The translations under genes and the position numbers were made by a program. The notes beneath the pieces were generated by a model. That model was given only the letters and a program-made list of their open reading frames with translations. It did no database searches and had not been told where the DNA came from. Positions 45,999 to 62,659 of a stretch of 64,000 nucleotides of DNA are shown here, piece after piece (position 1 is the stretch's first letter; each line of letters begins with the position of its first letter). Source of the stretch: Alistipes sp. (GTDB lineage Bacteria > Bacteroidota > Bacteroidia > Bacteroidales > Rikenellaceae); contig JAVVZO010000001.1 of NCBI GenBank assembly GCA_036650515.1, positions 39,189-103,188 on the forward strand. Reading direction: 5' to 3'.

Positions 45999-46877
45999 AT
46001 GAAACAAATTGGTTACATTTTATGCTGCATGATGGTACTCACATCATGTGTGAGTCGGAATAGTGCAGATCAGCTGCGAAATGAAAAGGATTCTGTGGAG
46101 ATTATCCTTCACGCCAAAGATTCGATGATGAACGAGGTCTTTGTGGCGATGAATACCATCTCTGAAAATCTTTCAGCTATCAAAATTCGCGAGAATCTCA
46201 TCACAACGGTGAGCAATAGTGATCAGGCAGGGCAAGCACCCACGGGGCAAATTGACGAGGACATTGCCGCTATTGATCAGCTGTTGCAAGACAATCGCGC
46301 CAAAATAGCCTCGCTGGAGCAATCAGCTGCGAAGTTGCGCAAGGCGCGGGTGAAAATCAGTGGGATGGAGAAGATGATCGCCAACTTACAGAATCAGTTA
46401 GATGCCAAGGATGGTGAAATTTCACAGCTCAAGCAGCAACTCTCTCAGTTGGGCATTCAGGTGAACCAGTTGAGCGAAACCGTGACTGCACAGGCCGCAC
46501 AGGTGGAAGATCTCAGCTCGACCAAAACGGCATTGACCGAGGAGGTGCGGAGTAAGACCGATCAGTTGCATACGGCCTATTATCTTATCGGCGCACAAAA
46601 GGAGCTGATCGCCTCGAAGGTGATCTCGAAACAGGGCTTTATCGGCCGGACACTCAAGGTGAACGAAAACCCCGGTCTGGATCGTTTTACACAAGTGGAT
46701 ACGCGGTCGCTGAAAGAGATCCCCGTGGGACATAAAAATGTGAGCTTGGTAACGATGCACCCAAACTCTTCTTATGAGCTCAAAATGGGCGAAGATAAGA
46801 TGGTTCAGACTTTGGTGATTACCAATCCTGAGCAATTTTGGGAGTACTCTAAGATATTGGTTATCAGCTATAAATAA
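45999..46877 (+). CDS. Coiled-coil lipoprotein (resembles the Bacteroidota Cbp1-like family)
   Basis: Lipobox LTSC at residues 14-17, long heptad region, C-terminal beta domain (LVITNPEQFW..SK.LVI). Confidence 0.6.
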   Translation: MKQIGYILCCMMVLTSCVSRNSADQLRNEKDSVEIILHAKDSMMNEVFVAMNTISENLSAIKIRENLITTVSNSDQAGQAPTGQIDEDIAAIDQLLQDNRAKIASLEQSAAKLRKARVKISGMEKMIANLQNQLDAKDGEISQLKQQLSQLGIQVNQLSETVTAQAAQVEDLSSTKTALTEEVRSKTDQLHTAYYLIGAQKELIASKVISKQGFIGRTLKVNENPGLDRFTQVDTRSLKEIPVGHKNVSLVTMHPNSSYELKMGEDKMVQTLVITNPEQFWEYSKILVISYK

Positions 46878-46951: not shown

Positions 46952-46987
46952 AATAGGAGTGGGCTTTGGCTCGCTCCTATTTTTTTG
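46952..46987 (+). terminator. Intrinsic terminator
   Basis: aataggagtgggc-tttg-gctcgctcctatt followed by a T-run. Confidence 0.8.
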
Positions 46988-47219: not shown

Positions 47220-47873
47220 ATGAATAAAAAAATTGACTTAAACGATGCCGTTGCTCTTGTCAAAGACGGAATGACGGTGATGGTCGGCGGCTTTCTCGGT
47301 GTCGGCGCGGCAACTGAAATCCTCTCCGCTTTGGCGCAAACCAAGGTGCGCAACCTGACTTTGATCTGCAATGACACGGCTTTTCCCGACAAGGCGCAAG
47401 GTCTGCTTGTTGTCGGTGGTCAGGTCTCCAATTTAATCGTCACCCATATCGGGACCAACCCAGTTACTGGGGAGAAGATGAACACCGGTGAGATTAAGAT
47501 CGAATTTGCACCTCAGGGTACATTGGCAGAGCGCATCCGTGCCGCTGGGGCTGGCTTGGGCGGTGTGTTGACCAAAACAGGTCTTGGAACTTCGGTGGCT
47601 GATGGGAAGCAGACAATCACCGTGGATGGAGTTGAATACCTGCTTGAGAAGCCGCTTCATGCTGACCTTGCTCTTTTGGGGGCATCGCTGGCCGATGAAT
47701 CAGGTAACTTGATCTACCGTGGTACGGCGCAGAACTTCAATCCCTTGATGGCGACGGCTGCTGATGTGGTTATTGTGGAGGCACAGCAGGTTGTACCTTG
47801 TGGTCAATTAGCTCCCGAAGCAATCCATACGCCGGGAATATTTGTCGATTATATCTATTCAAAAACGAAATAA
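47220..47873 (+). CDS. atoD: Butyrate-acetoacetate CoA-transferase subunit A
   Basis: [22 protein letters not shown] and NFNPLMA motifs; operon context. Confidence 0.9.
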
Positions 47874-47875
47874 TT

Positions 47876-48262
47876 ATGGCTTTGAAATCACTTATTAGAC
47901 TCCGGATGAGTTGTGCAGATGCACACTATGGCGGTAATTTGGTCGATGGGGCGAAGATGCTCCAACTGTTTGGCGATGTAGCGACAGAGCTACTTATTCT
48001 CCGAGATGGAGACGAAGGTCTTTTTAAAGCCTACGACAGTGTTGAATTTATGGCTCCGGTCTATGCGGGCGATTTTATTGAGGCTTCAGGCGAGATCGTC
48101 TCTGAAGGTAACTCTTCGCGCAAGATGGTTTTTGAGGCGCGCAAGGTCATCGTGCCACGTCCCGATATTTCGGATTCAGCAGCAGATAAGTTGGACGAGC
48201 CAATTATAGTTTGCCGCGCCAGCGGTACCTGTGTTGTCCCCAAGAAGAGTCAACGGAAATAA
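47876..48262 (+). CDS. kal: 3-aminobutyryl-CoA ammonia-lyase (hotdog fold)
   Basis: [12 protein letters not shown] and GDVATEL...DGDEGLF motifs. Confidence 0.92.
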
Positions 48263-48272
48263 AACGATAGAG

Positions 48273-49103
48273 ATGGAAAAACTGATTATTACAGCGGCAA
48301 TCTGTGGCGCTGAGGTGCTCAAAGAGCACAATCCGGCCGTCCCTTATACCATTTCGGAATGTGCGGCTGAAGCAAAAGCAGCCTACGATGCGGGTGCCAG
48401 TTTGATTCACCTGCACGTCAGGGAGGATGATGGTAAACCCACCCAGAGCAAAGAGCGCTTCCGTTTAGTGATGGAGGCTATTCGTGCTTGCTGTCCCGAT
48501 GCAATTATTCAACCTTCAACCGGTGGTGCGGTAGGCATGACCAATGACGAGCGTTTACAACCTACCGAGTTGCTCCCGGAGATGGCTACCCTTGATTGCG
48601 GAACCCTGAATTTTGGGGGAGACGATATTTTTGAAAATACAGAGAATACCATTAAATATTTTGGACAACGCATGATCGAACGGGGTATCAAGCCGGAGAT
48701 CGAGGTGTTCGACAAAAGTATGATTGAGATGGCGATACGTCTGCGCGCCAAAGGATTCATCGTTGATCCGATGCACTTTGATTTTGTGATGGGTGTCAAT
48801 GGCGGTATTGGTGGTGATCTGCGCGATTTTGTCTTCTTGCGTGGAAGTATTCCTGCCAATGCAACCTATACGGTTGCCGGTGTAGGACGTTATGAATTTC
48901 CACTCGCTGCTGCGGCCATCTTGGATGGTGGTCATGTGCGTGTGGGCTTCGAAGATAATGTCTACCTCTCCAAAGGCGTGTTGGCCAAATCCAATGGTGA
49001 ATTGGTTGCCAAGGTCGTTCGTTTGGCCAAAGAATTTGGCCGTCCGATCGCCTCACCGGCAGAAGCACGTGCCATTTTGGGCTTAGCCCCTCGAAACAAG
49101 TAA
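48273..49103 (+). CDS. kce: 3-keto-5-aminohexanoate cleavage enzyme
   Basis: IHLHVR, STGG and GHVRVGFEDN (DUF849) motifs. Confidence 0.93.
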   Translation: MEKLIITAAICGAEVLKEHNPAVPYTISECAAEAKAAYDAGASLIHLHVREDDGKPTQSKERFRLVMEAIRACCPDAIIQPSTGGAVGMTNDERLQPTELLPEMATLDCGTLNFGGDDIFENTENTIKYFGQRMIERGIKPEIEVFDKSMIEMAIRLRAKGFIVDPMHFDFVMGVNGGIGGDLRDFVFLRGSIPANATYTVAGVGRYEFPLAAAAILDGGHVRVGFEDNVYLSKGVLAKSNGELVAKVVRLAKEFGRPIASPAEARAILGLAPRNK

Positions 49104-49133: not shown

Positions 49134-50174
49134 ATGAAAAAAGGAAATAAATACGGTACACACCGTGTCATTGAGCCGAAGGGCGTGCTGCCCCAGCCGG
49201 CTGATCGTTTGGACAACAACATGGACGAGATCTACGATAACGAGATCCTCATCGACGTACAAACCCTAAACATAGACTCCGCCAGCTTTACTCAAATTGA
49301 GGAACAAGCCGGTGGCGACAAAGCACGTATCGCTGAGATTATGCTCGGCATCGTTGCAAAACAAGGCAAACACCGCAATCCGGTGACCGGTTCGGGTGGT
49401 ATGCTACTCGGTACGGTAGAAAAAATCGGTGATGCTCTTGCCGGTAAGATTGATCTGAAGGTGGGTGATAAAATCGCCACACTGGTATCGCTGTCACTTA
49501 CTCCGTTGCGTATTGATCGCATCAAAGACATTCGCCCTGATATTGATCAGGTAGATATTGATGGTAAGGCTATTCTGTTTGAGAGTGGTATCTACGCCAA
49601 GATTCCAACCGATATGCCGGAGAATTTGGCACTTTCGGCACTGGACGTTGCCGGTGCTCCTGCACAGACAGCCAAGTTGGTAAAACCCGGTGACACGGTA
49701 CTCATTATCGGTGCAGGTGGCAAGTCGGGTATGCTCTGCTGCTACGAAGCGAAAAAACGTGCCGGCGTGACTGGCAAGGTGATCGGTTTGTGTCACAGCC
49801 AGCGGAGTACGGATCGGATGAAAGAGTTGGGTTTCTGCGACTATGTTTTTGCCGCTGATGCCACCAAACCGGTTGCTGTACTTGAGAAAATCGAAGAACT
49901 GACTAAGGGTGAGATGTGTGATGTGACCATCAATAATGTGAACATCACCGACACAGAGATGACGTCGATCCTTTGCACCAAAAATTGCGGTGTGGTCTAC
50001 TTCTTCTCTATGGCTACCAGCTTCACCAAGGCTGCTTTGGGCGCTGAAGGTGTCGGTAGTGATGTGACGATGATCATGGGTAATGGTTACACCCGTGGGC
50101 ACGCCGAAATCACCCTGCAACTGCTGCGTGAGTCGGAGAAATTACGTAAGATATTCACAGAATTATACGCCTAA
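49134..50174 (+). CDS. kdd: L-erythro-3,5-diaminohexanoate dehydrogenase
   Basis: YGTHRVIEP, NPVTGSGGML and LDVAGAP motifs. Confidence 0.93.
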   Translation: MKKGNKYGTHRVIEPKGVLPQPADRLDNNMDEIYDNEILIDVQTLNIDSASFTQIEEQAGGDKARIAEIMLGIVAKQGKHRNPVTGSGGMLLGTVEKIGDALAGKIDLKVGDKIATLVSLSLTPLRIDRIKDIRPDIDQVDIDGKAILFESGIYAKIPTDMPENLALSALDVAGAPAQTAKLVKPGDTVLIIGAGGKSGMLCCYEAKKRAGVTGKVIGLCHSQRSTDRMKELGFCDYVFAADATKPVAVLEKIEELTKGEMCDVTINNVNITDTEMTSILCTKNCGVVYFFSMATSFTKAALGAEGVGSDVTMIMGNGYTRGHAEITLQLLRESEKLRKIFTELYA

Positions 50175-50403: not shown

Positions 50404-51672
50404 ATGGAATCCAGAAGAAAAGTGCTATATCCCGATGTCCCTGATGAGTTGTGGAACGATTGGAAATGGCAGGTAAAAAACCGGATCGAGACTCTGGAGG
50501 AGCTGAAGCGTTATATTACGCTCACCCCTGAAGAGGAACGTGGAGTGAAAACCTCCCTTGAGACCCTTCGTATGGCCATTACGCCATACTATTTGAGTCT
50601 GATTGATCCTGATGATCCTCATTGTCCGATTCGGCGTCAGTCGATACCTACGGCCAGTGAAACCCATATTGCAGCTGCCGACCTACTCGATCCTTTGCAT
50701 GAGGATGAGGATTCGCCGGTTCCGGGTCTTACCCATCGTTATCCCGATCGGGTTTTGTTGCTGATCACAGATATGTGTTCTATGTATTGTCGTCATTGTA
50801 CGCGCCGACGCTTTGCCGGACACAAAGACGATGAGATGCCGGTAGATCGTATTGACCGCGCTATCGACTATATTGCCGCTACACCTGAGGTGCGCGATGT
50901 CCTTCTTTCAGGAGGCGATGCGTTGATGGTGAGCGACAAACGCTTGGAATACATTATCCAGCGCTTGCGGGCTATTCCCCACGTGGAGATTATCCGCATC
51001 GGAACACGTACGCCGGTGGTTTGTCCACAACGTATTACCCCCGAACTGGTGGCTATGTTGAAAAAATACCACCCTATTTGGCTCAATACTCACTTCAACC
51101 ATCCCAATGAGATTACGCCCGAATCGGCGGCAGCTTGTGCTCGGATGGCAGATGCCGGTATCCCTTTGGGCAATCAATCGGTGCTGTTGCGAGGGGTGAA
51201 TGACTGTGTCCATATTATGAAACATTTGGTGCAAGGTTTGGTGAAGATCCGTGTGCGTCCCTACTATATCTACCAATGCGACCTCTCTATGGGCTTGGAG
51301 CATTTCCGTACCCCTGTGTCGAAGGGCATTGAGATTATCGAGGCGTTGCGAGGTCATACCTCCGGTTATGCTGTTCCGACTTTTGTTGTGGATGCTCCGG
51401 GTGGTGGTGGCAAGACCCCCGTCATGCCGAATTATGTGATTTCACAATCTCCGGGCAAGGTCATTCTTCGTAATTTTGAAGGGGTGATCACCACCTATAC
51501 CGAACCGGAAGAGTACCATAATGAGTGTCATTGCGAGGAGTGTCAAAACCATTCGGCAAAAGTCGATGGTGTTGAAGCCCTCTTGGAAGGCAAGATGCTA
51601 AGTTTAGAACCCGCCCACCTGCTCCGTAAAGAACGGTGTGAAAAGGCGAAATTGAAGAACCAAAAGAAGTAA
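50404..51672 (+). CDS. kamA: L-lysine 2,3-aminomutase
   Basis: Radical-SAM CSMYCRHC, PLP lysine in APGGGGK, C-terminal CHCEEC. Confidence 0.97.
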   Translation: MESRRKVLYPDVPDELWNDWKWQVKNRIETLEELKRYITLTPEEERGVKTSLETLRMAITPYYLSLIDPDDPHCPIRRQSIPTASETHIAAADLLDPLHEDEDSPVPGLTHRYPDRVLLLITDMCSMYCRHCTRRRFAGHKDDEMPVDRIDRAIDYIAATPEVRDVLLSGGDALMVSDKRLEYIIQRLRAIPHVEIIRIGTRTPVVCPQRITPELVAMLKKYHPIWLNTHFNHPNEITPESAAACARMADAGIPLGNQSVLLRGVNDCVHIMKHLVQGLVKIRVRPYYIYQCDLSMGLEHFRTPVSKGIEIIEALRGHTSGYAVPTFVVDAPGGGGKTPVMPNYVISQSPGKVILRNFEGVITTYTEPEEYHNECHCEECQNHSAKVDGVEALLEGKMLSLEPAHLLRKERCEKAKLKNQKK

Positions 51673-51681
51673 CCCAATGTA

Positions 51682-52701
51682 ATGCCTTTTATCCCTGAAA
51701 TACTCCGCCACCGCTCCATATCCATTATCGGACTGGAAAAAAATACCGGCAAAACTGAGTGCTTGAATTATATCCTGCGTCAGTTGCCGGTGTTGGGGGG
51801 GCGAACAATAGCAATTACCTCCATTGGGATAGATGGCGAAACCAAAGATGTTCTCTCCGGCAGAGCCAAACCGGCCGTCCATGTGCGCGCTGGGATGATC
51901 TTCGCCACCAGTGAAAAATATCTTCCTGCCCATGGTGTGGTAGCGGAACTGCTGGATGTGAGCGACGAAGGCTCTGCTTTGGGACGTATGGTTACCGCAC
52001 GCGCCCTGACCGATGGTGCGGTGTTGCTGTCGGGCCCATTATCAACGGCGGCACTTGGCCGTTGGATCTCAGGGATTGATCGCTTTGGCGTGGATTTGGT
52101 GCTTGTCGATGGCGCTCTTTCGAGGATGAGTTCCGCTTCACCGGTGGTGACCGATGCAATGATTTTATCTACCGGAGCTGCGTGTTCGACCAATGTCGAT
52201 ATTTTGATTCGGCGAACGGCTTTTGTGGTGGAGAAGATCCGCCTTCCAGAAGCTGAACCACAGCTGATCGCCCAGTTGACTCCCTTGGACGAGGGTGTGT
52301 GGGCGGTGGATGCACAGGGTGAAATCTATGATATGCAAGTCTCCTCAACGCTCTTGGCAGCAGATGCTTGGACCGTTCCAAAGGGATGTAAAATGTTTTA
52401 TGTGACAGGGGCGCTGACCGATGGTTTTGTGGAGAGGCTCTCTGTGGATAAAAAGATACACAAGCCCGTAATTATTGTACGGGATTTTACGAAAATATGT
52501 ATGTCTCAAGCCGCTTGGATGAATTTCAAAGTCGCTGGAGGCCGTTTATTGGTGCTCAAGAGCAGTCGCTTGATTGCGGTTTGCGTCAATCCGGTAGCAC
52601 CCAATGGAATCGTATTGGATTCCGACCAACTATGTGAAAAATTATCGGCAGCGTTGTCGTTGCCGGTTTATGATATTGTAAAAAATGCCGATGCTGTTTA
52701 G
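51682..52701 (+). CDS. kamB: KamB-like putative lysine 5,6-aminomutase reactivase subunit
   Basis: N-terminal GLEKNTGKT P-loop-like motif and DGALSR; located between kamA and kamC/kamD. Confidence 0.65.
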   Translation: MPFIPEILRHRSISIIGLEKNTGKTECLNYILRQLPVLGGRTIAITSIGIDGETKDVLSGRAKPAVHVRAGMIFATSEKYLPAHGVVAELLDVSDEGSALGRMVTARALTDGAVLLSGPLSTAALGRWISGIDRFGVDLVLVDGALSRMSSASPVVTDAMILSTGAACSTNVDILIRRTAFVVEKIRLPEAEPQLIAQLTPLDEGVWAVDAQGEIYDMQVSSTLLAADAWTVPKGCKMFYVTGALTDGFVERLSVDKKIHKPVIIVRDFTKICMSQAAWMNFKVAGGRLLVLKSSRLIAVCVNPVAPNGIVLDSDQLCEKLSAALSLPVYDIVKNADAV

Positions 52702-54052
52702 AGAGATCATAGATTCGCCTTGTGGAATCCGCTTTATGGCCGATACGTTGGAAATGCGTTCGGCCGCAGGACGGCGTCTGCTCATGCAATCTCCGATGCT
52801 GGAAAGTGCGGCAGAGATTGAATTGGCGTTTGCGAAGCTTCGGGAATTTCACCAGAAATTGATTGTCGATCAGGCTACACAGCGGCGGTCAGTCGGTCGT
52901 ATTTTAGGCATTAAACTTCAGGGACTAAAAGATTGCGATGCCACCTTGCGTCAATTAGCCGCGGGCAGAGATGGAGATGAGGTCTGCTTTTTTGAGCTAA
53001 AATCGTTGGCCTTGCTCTGTGATCAGATTTCGCCGTTACTCTTGCAGGCGGGCATCACATCGATTCATCTTCCTGATCTTCAGGTTGTCAAAGAATTGCT
53101 CGATCCCGATCATACGGGTATTGCCTCCTTCTATATTTATGATTCATACAACCAAGAGTTGGGGCGTTTACGGCAACAAATTAGAAGCGGTAAAGGGGAT
53201 AAAAATGAACTGTTGATGGCCTCTCGAATGATCGAGCAGCAGATTTGTCAGCAGTTGACCACCTCCATCCGTCCCGAATTGGAACACCTGCGTACCGCGC
53301 TGACGATTTTGGCAGAAATAGATCTCTTGCTGGCCAAAGCACGCCAAATGGAGCGTTTTAAATTGACCTTCCCTTCGCTGTCTACCGATGAGAAAACCTC
53401 CTACCAAGGGCTTTTCCATCCGCAGGTCTGTGTTGCTTTGGAGGCTTCCGGCAAGTCTTACCAGCCTGTTGAGCTGACTTTTGGATTGATGCCGGTCACA
53501 GTCATTGGCGCGAATATGGGCGGTAAAACGGTGCTGTTGCGCTCTTTGGCTTTGTCGCAATACCTCTTCCAATTTGGTTTTGGTGTTCCGGCCGCGATGG
53601 CTACTATTCGACCTATTGAGCAACTTTATTTACGAATAGGTGATGCGGAGGCGAATCAAGGCGGTCTCTCCTCCTTCGCGTCTGAAATCACGGAGATCGG
53701 TACGATTTTAACGGCTGTGCGGAGCTGTAAACGCGTTTTGGTGCTCCTTGACGAGCCGGCGCGTACCACCAATCCGGTGGAAGGTGCGGCCTTGGTTTCG
53801 GCTTTGGTGAATCTTCTTGGGCAGTCGGGGGCTTCGTGCGTTCTCACGACACATTATAATTTGCTCCAGACTAAAAGTCGTCGGCTCAAAGTGCGCGGAC
53901 TTTCGGACAAGGGGATGGACTATACACTCACTGAGGTCGCCGATGGTGAGGTTCCGCATGAAGCCTTGGCGGTCGCTCGCATGCTCGGTGTGGATGCCGA
54001 ATGGATCGGCGGGGCACAACAATTATTAGATCAAGCAATTAAGCATTCATAA
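52685..54052 (+). CDS. kamC: KamC-like MutS-type ATPase without a mismatch-binding domain
   Basis: Walker A GANMGGKT, GLSSFASE signature, Walker B LLDE, TTHY. Confidence 0.7.
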   Translation: MPMLFREIIDSPCGIRFMADTLEMRSAAGRRLLMQSPMLESAAEIELAFAKLREFHQKLIVDQATQRRSVGRILGIKLQGLKDCDATLRQLAAGRDGDEVCFFELKSLALLCDQISPLLLQAGITSIHLPDLQVVKELLDPDHTGIASFYIYDSYNQELGRLRQQIRSGKGDKNELLMASRMIEQQICQQLTTSIRPELEHLRTALTILAEIDLLLAKARQMERFKLTFPSLSTDEKTSYQGLFHPQVCVALEASGKSYQPVELTFGLMPVTVIGANMGGKTVLLRSLALSQYLFQFGFGVPAAMATIRPIEQLYLRIGDAEANQGGLSSFASEITEIGTILTAVRSCKRVLVLLDEPARTTNPVEGAALVSALVNLLGQSGASCVLTTHYNLLQTKSRRLKVRGLSDKGMDYTLTEVADGEVPHEALAVARMLGVDAEWIGGAQQLLDQAIKHS

Positions 54053-54057
54053 AAGAT

Positions 54058-55614
54058 ATGGCAAAAAGTAAATTAGGTCTCGATTTTGAAAAAGTGGCAT
54101 ACGCCCGCAAGTTAGCAGGTGGAATTGCCGAAGAGGTGCAACAATTCGTGGTGAATTACACCACCGTTGCCGTTGAACGTACCTTGTGCCGATTGGTCGG
54201 TATTGATGGCGTGACGGCCGAGGGTGTACCTCTGCCCAATGTGGTGGTGGATGCGCTCAAAGCACATGGTGTCTTGGGCGAAGGGGTCTTGTTTTATTTG
54301 GCCAACGCCATGGTACATACAGGGTTGCAACCACAGCAGATTGCTGAGAAAATGGCAGCAGAGTCCCTTGATATTGCCTCCTTGCCGTTGGCTGATCGGG
54401 AGACGATCCTCAAGACGTTGCAACCGTTGGTCAAGGCCTCTGTGGAGCGCATTTCAGCGCGCCGCCATCGCCGTGAAGAGTATCTCAAACGGATCGGTGA
54501 GGGGCCAAAACCTTACCTATATGTGATTGTTGCCACGGGCAACATCTACGAAGATGTGGTGCAGGCTGAGGCAGCTGCACGACAAGGTGCTGATATTGTC
54601 GCGGTGATCCGCACAACGGGGCAGAGCCTTTTGGACTACGTACCTTATGGTGCTACCACGGAGGGATTTGGCGGTACAGTCGCCACCCAAGAAAATTTCC
54701 GGATCATGCGTTCCGCACTGGATAAAGTGGGTGAAGAAGTAGGCCGCTATATTCGATTATGCAACTATTGTTCAGGGCTTTGTATGCCTGAAATAGCCGT
54801 TATGGGCGCTTTTGAAGGCTTGGATGTGATGCTCAACGATGCCCTCTATGGCATCCTTTTCCGCGACATCAATATGCAACGCACGTTGGTAGATCAATAC
54901 TTCTCTCGGGTGATCAATAGCTTCGCTGGTGTGATTATCAATACCGGTGAGGACAACTACCTGACCACCGCCGATGCCTTTGAGGAGGCGCATACGGTGT
55001 TGGCTTCCGATATTATCAATGAACAATTAGCGCTGCTGGCCGGACTTCCGGAGGAGCAAATGGGACTTGGCCACGCTTTTGAGATGGATCCTGCCCTTGA
55101 AAATGGCTTCCTTTATGAATTGGCACAGGCGCAAATGACCCGTGAGATCTTTCCAAAGGCAACGCTGAAATATATGCCGCCAACCAAGTTTATGACGGGT
55201 AATATCTTCCGTGGGCATATTCAGGATGCTCTTTTCAACATGATCGGCATCTGGACACACCAAGGTATTCAACTCTTGGGAATGCCTACCGAGGCACTCC
55301 ATACGCCTTTTATGTCGGATCGCTACCTCTCTATCGAGAATGCAAAATACATCTTCAACAACCTGCGTAATATTGGTGACGAAGTGGAGTTCCGCGAAGG
55401 GGGTATCATCCGCGAACGGGCACACGATGTGCTGGACAAAGCGATCGTTCTGCTTGAAAAAATTGATCACGAAGGTCTGTTTACAGCCTTGGAAAAGGGC
55501 ATTTTTGCCGATATTCGTCGACCGAAAAATGGAGGCAAAGGATTGGCCGGCGTTTGTGAAAAAGGGGCGCACTACCTCAATCCATTTATTGACATCATGA
55601 AAAAAATCAACTAA
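54058..55614 (+). CDS. kamD: Lysine 5,6-aminomutase alpha subunit
   Basis: VIRTTGQSLLDY, NYCSGLCMPE and KYMPPTK motifs. Confidence 0.96.
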   Translation: MAKSKLGLDFEKVAYARKLAGGIAEEVQQFVVNYTTVAVERTLCRLVGIDGVTAEGVPLPNVVVDALKAHGVLGEGVLFYLANAMVHTGLQPQQIAEKMAAESLDIASLPLADRETILKTLQPLVKASVERISARRHRREEYLKRIGEGPKPYLYVIVATGNIYEDVVQAEAAARQGADIVAVIRTTGQSLLDYVPYGATTEGFGGTVATQENFRIMRSALDKVGEEVGRYIRLCNYCSGLCMPEIAVMGAFEGLDVMLNDALYGILFRDINMQRTLVDQYFSRVINSFAGVIINTGEDNYLTTADAFEEAHTVLASDIINEQLALLAGLPEEQMGLGHAFEMDPALENGFLYELAQAQMTREIFPKATLKYMPPTKFMTGNIFRGHIQDALFNMIGIWTHQGIQLLGMPTEALHTPFMSDRYLSIENAKYIFNNLRNIGDEVEFREGGIIRERAHDVLDKAIVLLEKIDHEGLFTALEKGIFADIRRPKNGGKGLAGVCEKGAHYLNPFIDIMKKIN

Positions 55615-55615
55615 T

Positions 55616-56410
55616 ATGAGCGGAGGACTTTATTCTACAACGGCAAAAGATTTTGATAAGACCCTCGATCTGACCAAGGTAAAACCCTATGGCGATACGA
55701 TGAATGATGGTAAGGTGCAGCTGAGTTTTGCGTTGCCTGTTCCTGCCGGTGACGAAGCATCCGAGGCGGCCAAGCAGCTAATGCGTAAGATGGGTTTTAA
55801 TGATCCGCAAGTGGTCTTTACCCGAGAACTTGCTCCGGGATTCACCTTTTGTAACTGTTACGGTACGTGTAGCCATACAGTGGATTACACCACCATTCGC
55901 GTGCCCAAAGTCACCAGTACGGTGATGGACATGACGCATACCGATGACTATATTCGCGAACACATTGGTCGCAAGCTCATTGTGGTGGGTGCCAGTACCG
56001 GTACAGATGCCCATACGGTGGGTATTGATGCGGTGATGAATATGAAAGGGTACGCCGGTCACTACGGGCTGGAGCGTTACGAGATGATAGATGCCTATAA
56101 CTTGGGTAGCCAAATTCCGAATGAGGAATTTTTAGCACGCGCCATTGAACTCCATGCGGATGCAATTTTGGTCTCCCAGACCGTTACGCAAAAAGATGTG
56201 CATGTGCACAACCTCATTGATCTGATTGAGTTGATGGAGGCAGAGAATCTGCGCGATCGGATGATCGTTGCTTGCGGAGGACCGCGCATCAACCATGAAT
56301 TAGCAAAAGAATTGGGCTATGATGCCGGCTTCGGGATGAATAGTTATGCCGATGATGTAGCCTCTTTCTTAGCACAGGAATATGTTAGTCGTCATGAAAC
56401 CAACAAATAA
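55616..56410 (+). CDS. kamE: Lysine 5,6-aminomutase beta subunit
   Basis: B12-binding DAHTVG motif and PLP-binding MNMKGYAG. Confidence 0.96.
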   Translation: MSGGLYSTTAKDFDKTLDLTKVKPYGDTMNDGKVQLSFALPVPAGDEASEAAKQLMRKMGFNDPQVVFTRELAPGFTFCNCYGTCSHTVDYTTIRVPKVTSTVMDMTHTDDYIREHIGRKLIVVGASTGTDAHTVGIDAVMNMKGYAGHYGLERYEMIDAYNLGSQIPNEEFLARAIELHADAILVSQTVTQKDVHVHNLIDLIELMEAENLRDRMIVACGGPRINHELAKELGYDAGFGMNSYADDVASFLAQEYVSRHETNK

Positions 56411-56427
56411 CAATAAAATAGACGAAT

Positions 56428-57099
56428 ATGGACAAAAACAGCATTAGAGAGTTGATTGCCAAGCGCGCAGTCCTTGAAATAGAAGACGGTGACGTGGTGA
56501 ACCTCGGTATCGGACTTCCGACAGCGATTCCGAGCTACCTCCCCCAAGGGGTCTCTGTAACCCTGCAAACTGAAAATGGACTTTTAGGTATGGGCCCTGC
56601 ACCAAAAGAGGGCGAGGAAGATCCGGAATATATCAACGCTGGAGGTGGCTTTATTACGGCTCTTCCGGGCGCTGTGACCTTCTCCTCGGCCGATTCATTT
56701 GCCATTATCCGTGGCGGTCACGTGAATGTGACCTTCCTTGGAGCATTGGAAGTGGATGAAAAGGGCGATTTGGCGAACTGGATCATCCCCGGAAAGAAAG
56801 TTCCTGGAATGGGTGGTGCAATGGATTTGCTGATTGGTGCACGTAAAGTTGTGCTGACCATGGAACATACAGCCAAAGGATCGCCAAAGATTCTGAAGAA
56901 ATGTCGCCTTCCGTTGACCGCAGCTGGTCAGGTGAACAAAATCATCACCGAAATGGGTGTGATGGAGATCACTCCACGTGGGATTGTGCTTACTGAAATC
57001 AATCCTGAATTTACCGTTGCCGATGTGCAGGCAGCCACTGAGGCTACCTTGATTATTGCCGACGATTTAAAATCCATGCTAAAAGTGATAGGACAATGA
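56428..57099 (+). CDS. atoA: Butyrate-acetoacetate CoA-transferase subunit B
   Basis: VNLGIGLPT, catalytic QTENG and GMGGAMDL motifs. Confidence 0.9.
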   Translation: MDKNSIRELIAKRAVLEIEDGDVVNLGIGLPTAIPSYLPQGVSVTLQTENGLLGMGPAPKEGEEDPEYINAGGGFITALPGAVTFSSADSFAIIRGGHVNVTFLGALEVDEKGDLANWIIPGKKVPGMGGAMDLLIGARKVVLTMEHTAKGSPKILKKCRLPLTAAGQVNKIITEMGVMEITPRGIVLTEINPEFTVADVQAATEATLIIADDLKSMLKVIGQ

Positions 57100-57500
57100 T
57101 TAAAGTAGGCGATACTTATACCTTGGCTGTCAGCTTCACCCAAGAAGAGGTGATTGCTTTTGCTAAAACGACCGGAGATTGCAACCCGATCCACTTAGAT
57201 GCTGAATTTGCGGCAAAAACACCTTTTGGCCGCCCTATTGTACACGGATTTTTATCGGCCGCTGTCTTTTCTCGGGTCTTTGGTATGCTCTTCCCCGGCC
57301 CGGGTACGATCTACCTCTCGCAGGAGATGTCTTTCCGTGCGCCTGTCTTCACAGATGCCCCATATAAGGCTGAATTCGAGGTGATTGAGATCAATCATGA
57401 GAAACATATCGGTACTGTGAAATGTCTGCTTTGCAATGCCGAGGGGACAGCGTGCATCATTGGGACTGCAAAATTGAAACATAATATAGAATTTGTATAA
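57096..57500 (+). CDS. MaoC/PhaJ-like (R)-specific enoyl-CoA hydratase
   Basis: Hydratase-2 motif TGDCNPIH.D and FGRPIVHG. Confidence 0.85.
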   Translation: MIKVGDTYTLAVSFTQEEVIAFAKTTGDCNPIHLDAEFAAKTPFGRPIVHGFLSAAVFSRVFGMLFPGPGTIYLSQEMSFRAPVFTDAPYKAEFEVIEINHEKHIGTVKCLLCNAEGTACIIGTAKLKHNIEFV

Positions 57501-57512
57501 AAAAAGAAAACC

Positions 57513-58256
57513 ATGAAAAGACTGGAAAACAAAGTCGCTATTATCACTGGCGGAACTGCTGGTATTGGCGCTGCAACAGCCATCCTTTTTGCTCAAGAAG
57601 GGGCTAAAGTGATCGTATGGGCGCGCAATGAAGCACGCGGTAAAGAGATGGTTGAACATGCTGCTGCTCAGGGATTAACTCTCTGTTTTGAGCAGGTGGA
57701 TACCAGCAATTCGGATGCGGTAAACGCAGCGGCCAAGAAGGCGTTCGATCAATTTGGACGTATCGACATCTTGATTAACAATGCCGGTATCACCAACGAC
57801 AGCTCGCTCAAGAAAATGACCAACGAGCAGTGGCAAAATGTAATTGATGTGAACCTTTCGGGTACCTTCTATTGCGTGAAGGCCATTTCTGAATATATGC
57901 TCATCAACAACTACGGCCGTATTGTCAACGCCTCTTCGGTGGTGGGGCTCTATGGTAATTTTGGCCAAACAAACTATGTGGCAACAAAAGCCGGCATTAT
58001 CGGTATGACCAAGACTTTAGCACGTGAATTAGGCCGTAAAGGTATTACAGTCAATGCGGTTGCTCCCGGATTTATCGAGACGGAGATGGTCGCTAAGATG
58101 CCAGAGACCGTGTTAGCCGGTATGCGTGCCAAAGTTCCAGTAGGACGACTTGGCAAACCCGAAGAAATTGCAGCTGCCTATCTCTATTTGTCTTCAGAAG
58201 AGGCCGCTTATGTCAATGGTAGCGTATTGAGTGTCGATGGCGGCATGACCGTTTAG
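57513..58256 (+). CDS. FabG/PhaB-like short-chain 3-oxoacyl-CoA reductase
   Basis: TGGTAGIG, NNAG, YVATK (YxxxK) and VAPGFI motifs. Confidence 0.85.
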   Translation: MKRLENKVAIITGGTAGIGAATAILFAQEGAKVIVWARNEARGKEMVEHAAAQGLTLCFEQVDTSNSDAVNAAAKKAFDQFGRIDILINNAGITNDSSLKKMTNEQWQNVIDVNLSGTFYCVKAISEYMLINNYGRIVNASSVVGLYGNFGQTNYVATKAGIIGMTKTLARELGRKGITVNAVAPGFIETEMVAKMPETVLAGMRAKVPVGRLGKPEEIAAAYLYLSSEEAAYVNGSVLSVDGGMTV

Positions 58257-58278: not shown

Positions 58279-59418
58279 ATGAATTTTGAACTGACAAAAC
58301 CCCAACAACTTTTTCGGCAGATGATTCGCGAGTTTGCTGAAAAGGAGGTGAAACCTCTTGCCGCCGAAGTCGATGAGCAGGAGCGTTTCCCCGAAGAAAC
58401 CGTCGAAAAGATGGCCCGCTTGGGACTTTTCGGCATTCCTGTGCCGAAAGAATATGGCGGCGCAGGTGGTGATAACATTATGTACACGATTGCCGTTGAG
58501 GAGCTTTCACGCGTCTGTGGAACGACGGGTGTCATCCTCTCCGCGCACACTTCGCTCTGTGTTGCTCCGATTTTAGAGCACGGCACTGAAGAGCAGAAAA
58601 AACGCTATATTCCGCGTTTGGCTTCCGGTGAATGGTTAGGTGCTTTTGGCTTGACCGAGCCCAATGCGGGTACCGATGCTTCGGCACAACAAACGATGGC
58701 TGTGCCAGATGGTACAGATTACATCATCAATGGTACAAAGATTTTTATCACCAATGCAGGTTATGCTGATATCTATGTCATCTTTGCGATGACCGATAAA
58801 TCCCAAGGAACGAAGGGTATCACGGCCTTTATCATTGAGAAAGAGACCCCCGGATTCAGCTTTGGTAAAAAAGAGTTGAAATTAGGTATCCGTGGCTCGG
58901 CAACACGCGAGTTGATCTTCGATAACTGCCGCATTCCGGCGACCAATATGTTAGGTAAGTTGGGCGGTGGCTTTGGTGTGGCAATGAAGACCTTGGATGG
59001 TGGACGTATTGGAATTGCTTCGCAGGCGCTAGGAATTGCCCAAGGAGCGATGGACGAGACGGTTCATTATACCAAAGAGCGGAAGCAATTTGGTCGTTCG
59101 ATTGCGGCTTTCCAAAATACACAATTCCAGATGGCTGATTTGCAAACACGCGTGGAGGCAGCTCGTCTGTTGGTGCGCAGTGCCGCTTGGAAGAAAGATC
59201 AAAAACAACCCTATTCAGCAGATGCTGCTATGGCGAAACTCTATGCTGCCGAGACGGCGATGGATGTGACTACCAAGGCCGTTCAATTCCATGGCGGTTA
59301 CGGTTATACGCGCGAATATCCTGTTGAGCGGATGATGCGTGATGCGAAAATCACCGAGATCTATGAGGGTACCTCCGAGGTGCAACGTATGGTCATTGCA
59401 GCGAAATTATTCAAGTAA
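58279..59418 (+). CDS. bcd: Butyryl-CoA dehydrogenase
   Basis: FGLTEPNAGTD, KIFITN, RQFG-like KQFG and EIYEGTSEVQ motifs; adjacent to etfBA. Confidence 0.92.
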   Translation: MNFELTKPQQLFRQMIREFAEKEVKPLAAEVDEQERFPEETVEKMARLGLFGIPVPKEYGGAGGDNIMYTIAVEELSRVCGTTGVILSAHTSLCVAPILEHGTEEQKKRYIPRLASGEWLGAFGLTEPNAGTDASAQQTMAVPDGTDYIINGTKIFITNAGYADIYVIFAMTDKSQGTKGITAFIIEKETPGFSFGKKELKLGIRGSATRELIFDNCRIPATNMLGKLGGGFGVAMKTLDGGRIGIASQALGIAQGAMDETVHYTKERKQFGRSIAAFQNTQFQMADLQTRVEAARLLVRSAAWKKDQKQPYSADAAMAKLYAAETAMDVTTKAVQFHGGYGYTREYPVERMMRDAKITEIYEGTSEVQRMVIAAKLFK

Positions 59419-59430
59419 AATAGACAGAAA

Positions 59431-60213
59431 ATGAAAATAGTAGTTTGCATCAAGCAGGTGCCGGATACCACGGAGATCCGAATCAATCCTGCCACAGGCA
59501 CACTGATTCGTGAGGGCGTTCCGAGTATCATGAATCCCGATGATAAGGGGGGACTCGAGATGGCTTTGCAGTTAAAAGAGCGTTACGGCGCCAGTGTCAC
59601 CGTTATTACCATGGGTCCTCCGCAAGCAGATTTGATTCTCCGCGAGGCGATGGCGATGGGCGCAGATCGGGCGATTCTGCTAACTGATATGAAGTTTGCC
59701 GGTGCGGATACACTGGCCACTTCGCACGCTTTGGCAGGTGCTTTAACGCATTTAGAGTGGGATTTGGTGGTCGCCGGACGGCAGGCCATTGATGGTGATA
59801 CAGCACAAGTAGGGCCACAGACGGCAGAGCATATGGGTGTTCCTCATATCTCATATGTAGCTGGTTTAGAATATGATGGCAAGAAAACATTCCGCATCAA
59901 ACGCGAAACTGAAGAGGGCTACCAGCTCTTGGAGGCAGAAGCACCGCTGTTGATTACGGTTCTTGCCACGGCTAACAAACCGCGCTATATGTCGGTTGGT
60001 GGCATCGTGAATGCCTATGATCAGGCTGTCGAGATTTGGAATGCCGACAAGACTGGGATTGACCCCGTACAATTAGGACTCAAAGGTTCTCCGACCAAAG
60101 TGAAACAGACCTTCACCAAAGGCTTGAAAGGTGCTGGCGAAATGGTTGAGGTTGATGCCGAACAAGCTGTGGGCATCATTATGAGTCGACTGAAAGAGAA
60201 ATTCATCATCTAA
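59431..60213 (+). CDS. etfB: Electron transfer flavoprotein beta subunit
   Basis: VCIKQVPDT and GRQAIDGDTAQVG motifs. Confidence 0.96.
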   Translation: MKIVVCIKQVPDTTEIRINPATGTLIREGVPSIMNPDDKGGLEMALQLKERYGASVTVITMGPPQADLILREAMAMGADRAILLTDMKFAGADTLATSHALAGALTHLEWDLVVAGRQAIDGDTAQVGPQTAEHMGVPHISYVAGLEYDGKKTFRIKRETEEGYQLLEAEAPLLITVLATANKPRYMSVGGIVNAYDQAVEIWNADKTGIDPVQLGLKGSPTKVKQTFTKGLKGAGEMVEVDAEQAVGIIMSRLKEKFII

Positions 60214-60224
60214 TAGTAGCGATT

Positions 60225-61229
60225 ATGGACAAAACAACATATAAACACGTCTTCGTCTTTGCCGAGCAACGTGAGGGCAAAATCGGCTCTGTGGCTTTCG
60301 AATTATTGGGTAAAGCCCGCGATTTGGCGGATACATTAGGTGAAAAGGTGGTGGCTGTACTTCTTGGTAGCGGCATCACCGGTGAGGCTCAAGCGCTGAT
60401 CGAATGTGGTGCAGATCAAGTGATCTGTGCCGATGCACCTGAATTAAAAGATTATATTACAGAGCCTTATGCACAGGCTATGTATCAGATTATCATGCAG
60501 TATCACCCTTCGATTGTGCTCTTTGGAGCAACCACAATCGGTCGTGATATAGCACCGCGCTTGTCAGCACGGCTTGAAACCGGATTGACGGCCGACTGTA
60601 CCAAGTTGGAAATTTCGGCCGAAGGCGAGCTGATGATGACCCGCCCTGCTTTTGGTGGTAACTTGATGGCTACCATTCAATGTCCTGATCACCGTCCGCA
60701 GATGTCGACTGTTAGACCGGGCGTGATGAAGCGTCGGGATCAAGAGCCGAAACGTTGTGGAGAGATCACTCCCTTTGTACCGCAATTCGATCGGTCGCGC
60801 TTCAATGTGCGTTTGATTGAGACGGTTCGTGTTGACAAGGGTGCGATTGACATTGCAGATGCTCGAATTTTGGTTTCAGGTGGCCGTGGTGTCGGGAGTA
60901 AAGAGGGCTTTGCCACTTTGGAAGCTTTGGCTACTGTTTTAGGTGCTGAGGTCTCTTCTTCCAGAGCGATGGTTGATGCTGGTGTGATGGATCACTGCCG
61001 TCAGGTGGGGCAAACCGGTAAAACGGTGCGTCCAGATCTCTATTTTGCATTGGGCATTTCGGGTGCGATTCAGCACTTAGCCGGTATGGAGGAGTCTGGG
61101 TATATCGTAGCGATCAACAAGGATAAATATGCGCCTATTTTCCAAGTTGCTGATTTGGGTATTGTGGGCGATGTCCACAAAATTTTACCCCTGCTGACTG
61201 AAAGATTGGCCAAAGAGGTGAAGAAATAA
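60225..61229 (+). CDS. etfA: Electron transfer flavoprotein alpha subunit
   Basis: TRPAFGG, QVGQTGK and GISGAIQH motifs. Confidence 0.96.
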   Translation: MDKTTYKHVFVFAEQREGKIGSVAFELLGKARDLADTLGEKVVAVLLGSGITGEAQALIECGADQVICADAPELKDYITEPYAQAMYQIIMQYHPSIVLFGATTIGRDIAPRLSARLETGLTADCTKLEISAEGELMMTRPAFGGNLMATIQCPDHRPQMSTVRPGVMKRRDQEPKRCGEITPFVPQFDRSRFNVRLIETVRVDKGAIDIADARILVSGGRGVGSKEGFATLEALATVLGAEVSSSRAMVDAGVMDHCRQVGQTGKTVRPDLYFALGISGAIQHLAGMEESGYIVAINKDKYAPIFQVADLGIVGDVHKILPLLTERLAKEVKK

Positions 61230-61242
61230 AACCTTCTTTCTT

Positions 61243-61280
61243 AAAAAATAGCGGTAACCTTTTGGTTACCGCTATTTTTT
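61243..61280. terminator. Bidirectional intrinsic terminator
   Basis: aaaaaatagcggtaacc-tttt-ggttaccgctatttttt between convergent etfA and hpf. Confidence 0.88.
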
Positions 61281-61285
61281 GTGGT

Positions 61286-61593: not shown

Positions 61594-62517
61594 TTAATGG
61601 TTTATGATCTTATCACTCTCCGCTTCACGCGGATGAGCGGTGGTATAAATCTCTTGCAAGCGAGCGATGTTATTGTGGGTGTAAACTTGGGTCGTTCGTA
61701 AAGAGGCGTGCCCTAACAGCGCTTGTATCGTTCGCATATCTGCTCCGTTATTGAGCAGGTGGGTGGCGAAGGTGTGTCTTAAAACGTGGGGACTTCGCTT
61801 TCCCTGCATTCCGCCGTGGGCGAGTGCCTCTTGGACAGCTCGGTAGACCACTGAACGGGAAATGCGTTCTCCTTTCTGTGTTAAAAATAGTGCTTTTTTT
61901 GGAATTGTCCAACTATTTTGGTGATCAATTACGTCAATATAACGCAAAATTTGTTCCCGAACCGGAATGATGATTGGAATGAGGCGTTCTTTATCTCCCT
62001 TGCCTCGGATCTTCAACGACAGATAATCGGCCGAAAAATCACCGCGATCCATGCTGACCAACTCAGCCAGTCGTAAGCCACAAGTATAGAAAAGCAAGAC
62101 AATAAGCGCATTGCGTGTGGTGAGAAACGAATCGCTTTTATTGGCGGTGCTGCAATCATCTAAAATATCAATCATTCGGGTTTCAGGGACAAAGACCGGA
62201 AGTCTTTGGGGTGTTTTGAGCGAGGTGATTCGTTGGCAGATGTCTTTTGAAAGAGCCCCTGTGCGATGCAGATATCGGAAAAAAGAGCGGATCGTGGAGA
62301 GCTCCCGATTCATAGAAGCCGGACTTAGGTGGTCTGTTTCCATGCGGTGGATGATCCACTTGCGAATGGAGGTAGGGGTGGTTTGTCGCAGATCGGTAAT
62401 ATGCTCCGCCGTACCAAGCCACGCGATAAAAGTCTCAAGGTCGTGCCGGTAATTGCGAAGGGTGAGCGGTGAGTAGCGCCGTTCAGCTTCGAGATATTGA
62501 AGAAAATCCGATAACAT
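61594..62517 (-). CDS. xerC: Tyrosine recombinase XerC-like
   Basis: CGLRLAE, GKGDKER, HVLRHTFATHLL and LGHASLRTTQVY (R-K-H-R-H-Y). Start placed at MLSDFLQY. Confidence 0.85.
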   Translation of the reverse strand: MLSDFLQYLEAERRYSPLTLRNYRHDLETFIAWLGTAEHITDLRQTTPTSIRKWIIHRMETDHLSPASMNRELSTIRSFFRYLHRTGALSKDICQRITSLKTPQRLPVFVPETRMIDILDDCSTANKSDSFLTTRNALIVLLFYTCGLRLAELVSMDRGDFSADYLSLKIRGKGDKERLIPIIIPVREQILRYIDVIDHQNSWTIPKKALFLTQKGERISRSVVYRAVQEALAHGGMQGKRSPHVLRHTFATHLLNNGADMRTIQALLGHASLRTTQVYTHNNIARLQEIYTTAHPREAESDKIINH

Positions 62518-62659
62518 ACCACAAATATACAAAAAAATGGAAGCTCTACGCTGTTGCACCTATTTATATATAGGGACGATGTAGCCTTTGAAAGTTTTTC
62601 GGACGAATTCTATCAAGGGTGCTTACATTCAAATGATGAAAAGTGTGCCACTGGCCGAT

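Follow-up and report, generated by a model that had tools for sequence, protein, structure and literature searches.

Organization of the lysine operon

We analysed a 64,000-nt window of an Alistipes sp. genome (assembly GCA_036650515.1, contig JAVVZO010000001.1, positions 39,189-103,188 of the forward strand) that holds an operon for the fermentation of lysine to butyrate. The operon comprises 15 genes, all on the plus strand, in the order atoD-kal-kce-kdd-kamA-kamB-kamC-kamD-kamE-atoA-maoC-sdr-bcd-etfB-etfA. Two of these, lying between atoA and bcd, encode a MaoC-family protein and a short-chain dehydrogenase/reductase (SDR). The sequence evidence makes it probable that the two proteins form a shunt from acetoacetyl-CoA through (R)-3-hydroxybutyryl-CoA to crotonyl-CoA, replacing the (S)-specific pair of 3-hydroxybutyryl-CoA dehydrogenase (Hbd) and crotonase (Crt). 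The features of the operon are listed here in window coordinates, with the models or structures on which each assignment rests.

46952-46981, plus strand: terminator-like hairpin upstream of atoD, 13-bp stem and T run
47220-47873, plus strand: atoD, CoA-transferase subunit A (TIGR02429, 212 bits, cut-off 128.5; PF01144)
47876-48262, plus strand: kal, 3-aminobutyryl-CoA ammonia lyase (NF052388, 190.9 bits, cut-off 160)
48231-49103, plus strand: kce, 3-keto-5-aminohexanoate cleavage enzyme (NF052387, 433 bits, cut-off 382; PF05853)
49134-50174, plus strand: kdd, 3,5-diaminohexanoate dehydrogenase (NF052381, 278 bits, cut-off 200)
50404-51672, plus strand: kamA, lysine 2,3-aminomutase (TIGR03820, 626.5 bits, cut-off 525.4)
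51682-52701, plus strand: kamB, 5,6-aminomutase reactivase subunit (NF052386, 317.6 bits, cut-off 210)
52685-54052, plus strand: kamC, reactivase ATPase, MutS-like (NF052383, 349.7 bits, cut-off 300)
54058-55614, plus strand: kamD, lysine 5,6-aminomutase alpha subunit (NF052384, 916.8 bits, cut-off 600)
55616-56410, plus strand: kamE, lysine 5,6-aminomutase beta subunit, B12-binding (NF052385, 401.5 bits, cut-off 280)
56428-57099, plus strand: atoA, CoA-transferase subunit B (TIGR02428, 297 bits, cut-off 243.6)
57096-57500, plus strand: maoC, MaoC/hydratase-2 protein, PhaJ-like, proposed (R)-3-hydroxybutyryl-CoA dehydratase (PF01575; alignment with 1IQ6)
57513-58256, plus strand: sdr, classical SDR, FabG/PhaB-like, proposed acetoacetyl-CoA reductase, predicted NADPH-type (adh_short_C2; SDR motifs; 4NBU)
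58279-59418, plus strand: bcd, butyryl-CoA dehydrogenase (four acyl-CoA dehydrogenase Pfam models above cut-off, one N-terminal, one middle and two C-terminal; 5OL2_C)
59431-60213, plus strand: etfB (PF01012; 5OL2_B)
60225-61229, plus strand: etfA (PF01012 and PF00766)
61242-61281, plus strand: terminator-like hairpin 13 nt past etfA, 18-bp stem and T run

The lysine pathway is complete, as eight equivalog models (KamA-KamE, Kdd, Kce and Kal) and the models for both CoA-transferase subunits match above their NCBIfam cut-offs. The kal open reading frame (ORF) is open from 47798; its likely start is the ATG at 47876, and the NF052388 match begins at residue 30 of the ORF. The stop codon of atoA overlaps the ATG of maoC (ATGA, 57096-57099), while gaps of 12 nt and 22 nt separate maoC from sdr and sdr from bcd. 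Strong terminator-like hairpins are found at the two ends of the operon only, and none comparable lies within the 15 genes. The initial annotation of this DNA had described a MaoC protein with a hydratase-2 motif and an SDR, tightly spaced or overlapping between atoA and bcd, in an operon lacking crotonase, Hbd and thiolase. The coordinates, domains and spacing were all confirmed, and profile searches of the operon proteins agree on the three missing enzymes. The nearest relatives are Alistipes-group Rikenellaceae, among them a metagenome-assembled genome (MAG) labelled Alistipes sp., whose operon proteins share 75-96% identity with those of the window. The gene order of the window operon is also found in A. 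putredinis DSM 17216, which has neither Hbd nor thiolase. The CoA-transferase genes atoD and atoA, the first and tenth of the operon, are ~8.5 kb apart, a split that is kept in most of the Bacteroidales loci examined.

The MaoC protein and the SDR

The MaoC protein has 134 amino acids and scores 72.4 bits on PF01575, for which the cut-off is 27. The hydratase-2 motif, tested as [YF]-x(1,2)-[LVIG]-[STGC]-G-D-x-N-P-[LIV]-H-x5-[AS], is present as F22-x2-T-T-G-D28-x-N-P-I-H33-x5-A39, with the catalytic Asp28 and His33 in place; the sole departure, T25 at the [LVIG] position, is non-catalytic. Nearly all of the 32 orthologues share the G-D-x-N-P-I-H core; in three, Arg replaces the Gly. The best solved relative is PhaJ of Aeromonas caviae, a 134-residue (R)-specific enoyl-CoA hydratase (1IQ6, E 2.3e-26), followed by human HTD2 and then by PhaJ1 of Pseudomonas. 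Residues 2-128 align without a gap to residues 6-132 of 1IQ6, and the Asp and His fall on the PhaJ dyad. At the positions of Leu65 and Val130 in the A. caviae enzyme, the window protein has Phe62 and Leu127, both conserved in its orthologues. We take Leu65 and Val130 to be chain-length determinants from the mutagenesis literature, in which case Phe62 and Leu127 would fit a C4 substrate.

The SDR has 247 amino acids and matches adh_short_C2 with 224 bits. It carries the motifs TGxxxGIG (T12-G19) and NNAG (N89-G92) and the tetrad N114-S142-Y155-K159, all of them invariant in the alignment with Escherichia coli FabG. The closest solved relative is the FabG homologue 4NBU, which aligns over the full length (E 1e-84), followed by 4NBW. 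The third-best PDB match is the (3R)-hydroxyacyl-CoA dehydrogenase 2ET6, presumably the dehydrogenase part of yeast MFE-2. Structures of acetoacetyl-CoA reductases, PhaB included, match at E values of ~1e-54 to 1e-57. With 1IQ6 nearest to the MaoC protein and 4NBU and 2ET6 to the SDR, the earlier assignment of the pair to (R)-type families holds. The FabG homologues 4NBU, 4NBV, 4NBW and 4NBT come from Javidpour et al. 2014 (AEM 80:497), according to the passage of PMC12810213 that cites that work.

The profile scores place the SDR close to two functional groups. It falls just below the equivalog cut-off for FabG (TIGR01830, 295.5 versus 297.75 bits) and below the curated cut-offs for the acetoacetyl-CoA reductase PhaB (TIGR01829 and NF042966; 267.2 versus 302.1 bits on TIGR01829). 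We file the protein as an enzyme that would work like PhaB and is not a PhaB orthologue. A separate FabG paralogue on contig 9 reaches 328.2 bits on TIGR01830, above the cut-off of 297.75, and rules out the operon SDR as the only FabG of the genome. Arg129 and Arg172 of E. coli FabG, which we take to be residues that dock the acyl carrier protein (ACP), correspond to Asn133 and Lys176 in the window SDR; the first of them is Gly or Asn in three orthologues and Arg in the contig-9 FabG.

Gene content of the assembly

The assembly (1.74 Mb in 63 contigs) is 98.55% complete. Profile searches of the whole of it, a check suggested in the initial annotation, found no thiolase, crt or hbd elsewhere. 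There was no ECH_1 match that would indicate an ECH-type crotonase, no 3HCDH-type Hbd (best 3HCDH_N score 24.5 bits) and no thiolase (best TIGR01930 score 40.7 bits, cut-off 240.6). The two weak Thiolase_N matches, in frames of 350 and 442 amino acids for which the thiolase model gives 41 and 24 bits, we take for condensing enzymes of the FabH/FabF type. Since the genome has no thiolase, the SDR and MaoC pair is the only visible outlet for acetoacetyl-CoA.

Two further roles or sources were considered and rejected. No match to PF07167, the model for polyhydroxyalkanoate (PHA) synthase PhaC, occurs in the assembly, and PHA synthesis was ruled out as the role of the pair. The 4-hydroxybutyrate route was dropped as another source of crotonyl-CoA, as the genome has no HpaB_N match of the AbfD type.

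The enzymes that would act downstream of the pair are present. Bcd has its best PDB match in 5OL2_C (E 1e-175) and EtfB in 5OL2_B (E 2e-95), both from the bifurcating complex of Clostridioides difficile, and the next matches of EtfB are 6FAH, 7KOE, 4KPU and 7QH2, which we also take to be bifurcating Etfs. These matches support the earlier suggestion that Bcd-EtfAB is probably bifurcating. The genome also encodes RnfC (550 bits), butyrate kinase (505 bits) and two CoA transferases of the AcetylCoA_hyd_C family. A second cluster of etfB, etfA and an acyl-CoA dehydrogenase gene lies at G000:C10:9309-12547, and the proteins it encodes share 31-46% identity with their operon counterparts.

Distribution in Bacteroidales

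Searches within Bacteroidota gathered 57 loci for MaoC and 80 for Kdd. Gene content was compared in 301 Bacteroidales genomes, sampled evenly, of which 36 have Kdd; three more Rikenellaceae were added for a total of 39 Kdd-positive genomes. MaoC orthologues were called at 56% identity or more.

The (S)-type and (R)-type pairs share one slot of otherwise collinear operons. In the window, A. putredinis, Tidjanibacter, Merdivivens and others, atoA is followed by maoC-sdr-bcd; Tenuifilaceae, Salinivirgaceae and many MAGs have thl-maoC-sdr-bcd at this point, three loci (L075, L087 and L090) have crt-hbd-bcd, and some have thl alone. This answers the synteny question raised in the initial annotation, as relatives carry crt and hbd in the identical position between atoA and bcd. 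In Porphyromonas and Odoribacter, bcd comes straight after atoA and hbd lies directly 3' of etfA, as checked in P. endodontalis and P. uenonis. The statement in the initial annotation that the Porphyromonas cluster carries Crt and Hbd is correct, with hbd found there in these two species, and Vital et al. 2014 agree. In two loci, G210:C3:83000-86700 and G338:C21:6200-9800, the gene order is etfA-atoA-maoC-sdr.

The two kinds of module exclude each other. MaoC orthologues occur in 11/36 Kdd-positive and in 0/265 Kdd-negative genomes of the sample, and the count includes genomes in which maoC is unlinked from the operon. Of the 39 Kdd-positive genomes, 14 have MaoC and the SDR and 20 a clear Hbd, without any overlap, and a strong Crt is found in none of the 14 MaoC genomes. 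Both module kinds occur inside single genera (g33 and g95). Nearly every thiolase-less Kdd-positive genome (17 of 18) carries either the MaoC and SDR module or the Hbd module. The SDR follows MaoC closely: each of the 14 MaoC genomes has an SDR orthologue, whose gene adjoins maoC in 11 of them and is parted from it in a twelfth (G079) by nothing but an inserted gene for a D12 DNA methyltransferase; all five Kdd-positive genomes with neither module lack the orthologue. The strict co-occurrence of the SDR with a CoA-type hydratase, in a pair that excludes Hbd and Crt, argues that the two proteins would catalyse two consecutive steps at the CoA level.

The history of the slot was examined on a tree of AtoA. 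Five changes between MaoC and other states are needed on this tree, and its well-supported branches force only one, so the claim of many independent swaps was dropped. The crt-hbd operon of L075 falls within the maoC-sdr group with a Shimodaira-Hasegawa-like approximate likelihood ratio (SH-aLRT) support of 93, below the value of 95 taken as well supported.

A different arrangement was seen at G209:C108:57907-59644 and in G123, G216, G240, G266, G270 and G343, where a crotonase gene adjoins an ORF of ~445 amino acids with weak similarity to Hbd (E ~1e-21 to 1e-23), in many cases with a thiolase gene and the lysine operon next to them. This ORF may encode a long, Hbd-like third variant.

Coenzyme motif and thiolase

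The site at the end of strand beta-2 that governs coenzyme type lies at window positions 57609-57632 (SDR residues 33-40), where the window SDR reads W36-A37-R38 (WARN). By the rule for classical SDRs, the lack of an Asp together with a following Arg at this point marks the NADP(H) type, and the window SDR is predicted to be of the NADPH type. Enzymes of the 4NBU group are reportedly NADH-dependent and are said to have been assayed on acetoacetyl-CoA. 4NBU has an Asp at the end of beta-2 (IADFN) where the window SDR has Ala-Arg, and the Asp form is found in thl-maoC-sdr operons of other Bacteroidales.

That the coenzyme motif of the SDR tracks the presence of thiolase is a new observation of this analysis, made on loci that include L008, L010, L013 and L034-L036. 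The Arg-type motif, W-[A/G/N]-R, occurs in the window genome and in 12-13 others, all of them thiolase-less. Nine genomes, each with a thiolase, have the Asp-type motif, W-D-L-D, in which the Asp aligns with the one in 4NBU. The Asp-type SDRs group in a single well-supported clade of the SDR tree, and the SDRs of L034 and L036 (WNRT) are a reversal nested inside it. Both of these genomes were predicted to be thiolase-less, and the search confirmed this for each. The link between motif and thiolase comprises just two independent contrasts and is suggestive. As the Arg-type motif is seen only where thiolase is missing, it fits a purely reductive role of the SDR in the window genome.

Proposed route and alternatives

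We infer the substrates, stereochemistry, coenzyme, direction and stoichiometry of the following route from the genes present, the families to which their products belong, their distribution across genomes and their motifs. KamA, KamDE, Kdd, Kce and Kal would convert lysine and acetyl-CoA to crotonyl-CoA and acetoacetate, and Bcd-EtfAB would reduce the crotonyl-CoA to butyryl-CoA. AtoDA would then move CoA from butyryl-CoA to acetoacetate, releasing a first butyrate. The acetoacetyl-CoA so formed would be reduced by the SDR to (R)-3-hydroxybutyryl-CoA, probably with NADPH, and the MaoC protein would dehydrate this to a second crotonyl-CoA. A second pass through Bcd-EtfAB would yield a second butyryl-CoA, for which butyrate kinase or a CoA transferase could serve as the exit.

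The canonical pathway runs as lysine + 2 H2O to butyrate + acetate + 2 NH3. By bookkeeping, the net reaction with the shunt would be lysine + acetate (or acetyl-CoA) + 4[H] to 2 butyrate + 2 NH3, and comparison of the two reactions implies that reductant from outside would be needed. The shunt would be an electron sink with two Bcd-Etf passes per lysine; the ferredoxin available to Rnf would be doubled, and ATP could still be made through butyrate kinase. The (R)-route proposed in the initial annotation gains support from the comparative genomics, namely from the families of the two proteins, the shared slot, the mutual exclusion with Hbd and the absence of thiolase, Hbd and Crt from the genome. 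All predictions of that reading that could be checked on genomes were borne out.

Several points weigh against this route. The SDR scores about equally on the FabG and acetoacetyl-CoA reductase models and falls short of both equivalog cut-offs, and its predicted preference for NADPH follows from a single motif rule. The genomes compared are related, so that the counts overstate their weight; they correspond to ~11 MaoC-bearing and ~13 Hbd-bearing genera. Thiolase, Hbd, Crt, MaoC and an SDR orthologue are all missing from one Kdd-positive genome that is 99% complete (G207), so that either an outlet for acetoacetyl-CoA is not strictly universal or a third outlet exists. Finally, A. putredinis is, to our knowledge, not a notable butyrate producer in standard media.

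The pair could instead run in the oxidative direction, as in beta-oxidation, taking crotonyl-CoA from Kal through (R)-3-hydroxybutyryl-CoA to acetoacetyl-CoA and gaining acetyl-CoA and ATP. Both reactions are reversible, thiolase stands directly upstream of maoC in many relatives, and the SDRs of those thiolase-bearing relatives are of the Asp (NAD) type, which suits oxidation. In the window genome and the 12-13 others with an Arg-type SDR, however, the missing thiolase would make acetoacetyl-CoA a dead end, and NADPH, to which the Arg-type motif points, is suited to reduction. Electrons from an extra oxidation would have no acceptor, given that the canonical lysine pathway is already redox-balanced. 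We regard oxidative operation of the pair as very unlikely. Another alternative is that the SDR works on a free acid or another keto intermediate, as the substrate range of SDRs is difficult to read from sequence and the pathway includes acetoacetate in free form. The SDR might then oxidise or reduce at the level of the free acid, as a 3-hydroxybutyrate dehydrogenase with acetoacetate as its substrate, or might supply (R)-3-hydroxybutyryl-CoA for a polymer or other product, and the MaoC protein would have a different partner reaction. The models for 3-hydroxybutyrate dehydrogenase are not among the best 25 NCBIfam matches of the SDR, PhaC was not found in the genome, and the strict tie of the SDR to a CoA-type hydratase and the exclusion of Hbd and Crt by the pair both speak for two successive steps on CoA esters; a substrate of this kind appears very unlikely.

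A last alternative is that the two proteins are a FabG/FabZ-like duo that acts on acyl-ACP or other lipid intermediates, and that their place in the operon is unrelated to lysine fermentation. The SDR is only 2 bits short of the FabG equivalog cut-off, its best PDB relatives were deposited as 3-oxoacyl-ACP reductases, and the MaoC protein resembles HadB-type acyl-ACP dehydratases weakly in profile searches. Fatty acid synthesis has its own cut-off-passing FabG elsewhere in the genome, however, and the operon SDRs have lost Arg129 of E. coli FabG. The restriction of MaoC orthologues to Kdd-positive genomes, never together with Hbd, and the use of the same slot by relatives for crt and hbd also speak against a role in lipid synthesis, to which we give very little credence. 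The conversion of acetoacetyl-CoA to crotonyl-CoA by the (R)-route remains the reading we prefer.

We tentatively extend this reading to other genomes, in the form of a proposal about which we are more doubtful than confident. An (R)-specific butyrate route of SDR, MaoC and Bcd-Etf may be widespread in the lysine fermenters of the Bacteroidales and may exist in two forms. One would combine thiolase with an NADH-type reductase and be reversible, or be fed from acetyl-CoA as well; the other, as in the window, would be thiolase-less with an NADPH-type reductase and act as an obligate electron sink that yields two butyrate per lysine. The coenzyme switch would then have evolved with the loss of thiolase at least twice.

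Relation to known systems

The closest known system is the one with Hbd and Cro that Vital et al. 2014 (mBio, PMC3994512) found co-located with the lysine operon in Porphyromonadaceae, where thiolase is missing. The same authors proposed that lysine-derived acetoacetyl-CoA enters butyrate formation and, for that version, the idea of an electron sink (PMC3994512). The window operon is like that system in the order of its core genes, with hbd directly after etfA confirmed in Porphyromonas and Odoribacter, in the entry of acetoacetyl-CoA from AtoDA at the second step, in the lack of thiolase and in the extra Bcd-Etf pass (PMC3994512). Unlike that system, it has an SDR in place of the 3HCDH protein and a hot-dog MaoC protein in place of the crotonase, the pair sits between atoA and bcd, and an (R) intermediate is expected. 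Sequence comparison supports a non-orthologous replacement of two enzymes in a pathway whose design is known, with the (R)-type version as the new part.

The same two families serve in PHA metabolism and, according to reviews of engineered butanol pathways, the PhaB-PhaJ pair is used there as well. PhaB and PhaJ take acetoacetyl-CoA through (R)-3-hydroxybutyryl-CoA to crotonyl-CoA, and the window MaoC protein matches 1IQ6 in length, motif and dyad. In contrast to PHA systems, the window genome has no PHA synthase, the pair stands in a fermentation operon that feeds Bcd-Etf, and the SDR scores below the PhaB cut-offs. Peroxisomal MFE-2 (multifunctional enzyme type 2), in which a (3R)-hydroxyacyl-CoA dehydrogenase and hydratase 2 form one protein, likewise joins the two families on (R)-3-hydroxyacyl-CoA. 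MFE-2 is a eukaryotic fusion that is oxidative and acts on long chains, whereas the window pair consists of two small separate proteins and is proposed to be reductive and to act on C4 substrates.

The (R)-type pair is not mentioned in the butyrate-pathway surveys of Vital et al. 2014 (PMC3994512) and Frolova et al. 2022, and the curated reconstruction of the latter lists Alistipes under the lysine pathway alone. Engineering papers aside, the full-text literature searched contained no (R)-route in lysine or butyrate fermentation. Surveys of butyrate formation in gut metagenomes look for the acetoacetyl-CoA branch by Hbd and Crt and would miss a route through MaoC and the SDR. If the proposed route operates, butyrate would be formed from both halves of lysine and an acetyl unit in Alistipes, Tidjanibacter, Merdivivens and many uncultured Bacteroidales, these bacteria would act as electron sinks in amino-acid fermentation, and the butyrate potential of the lysine-fermenting guild would be undercounted. 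The route would also be the first case known to us in which a natural fermentation uses a counterpart of the engineered PhaB-PhaJ route. The association of the coenzyme motif with thiolase lends itself to a test of whether a cofactor is tuned to the direction of a pathway.

Neighbouring genes and operon variants

Upstream, the operon is flanked by a gene for a collagen-binding adhesin of the Cbp1 family (window positions 45999-46877), and downstream by a gene for a XerC/XerD-like tyrosine recombinase on the minus strand (61594-62559). Two variations of the lysine operon were noted among the other loci. A gene for a class-III aminotransferase of 414 amino acids lies between atoD and kce, the usual position of kal, at L072:7872-9116 and also in L081, L083, L093 and L098; it probably represents the known pathway variant with a 3-aminobutyryl-CoA beta-transaminase (PMC3149608). 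In L066, L069, L071, L073 and many other loci, a second kdd paralogue (~60% identical) directly follows kdd in tandem, where the window has a single kdd.

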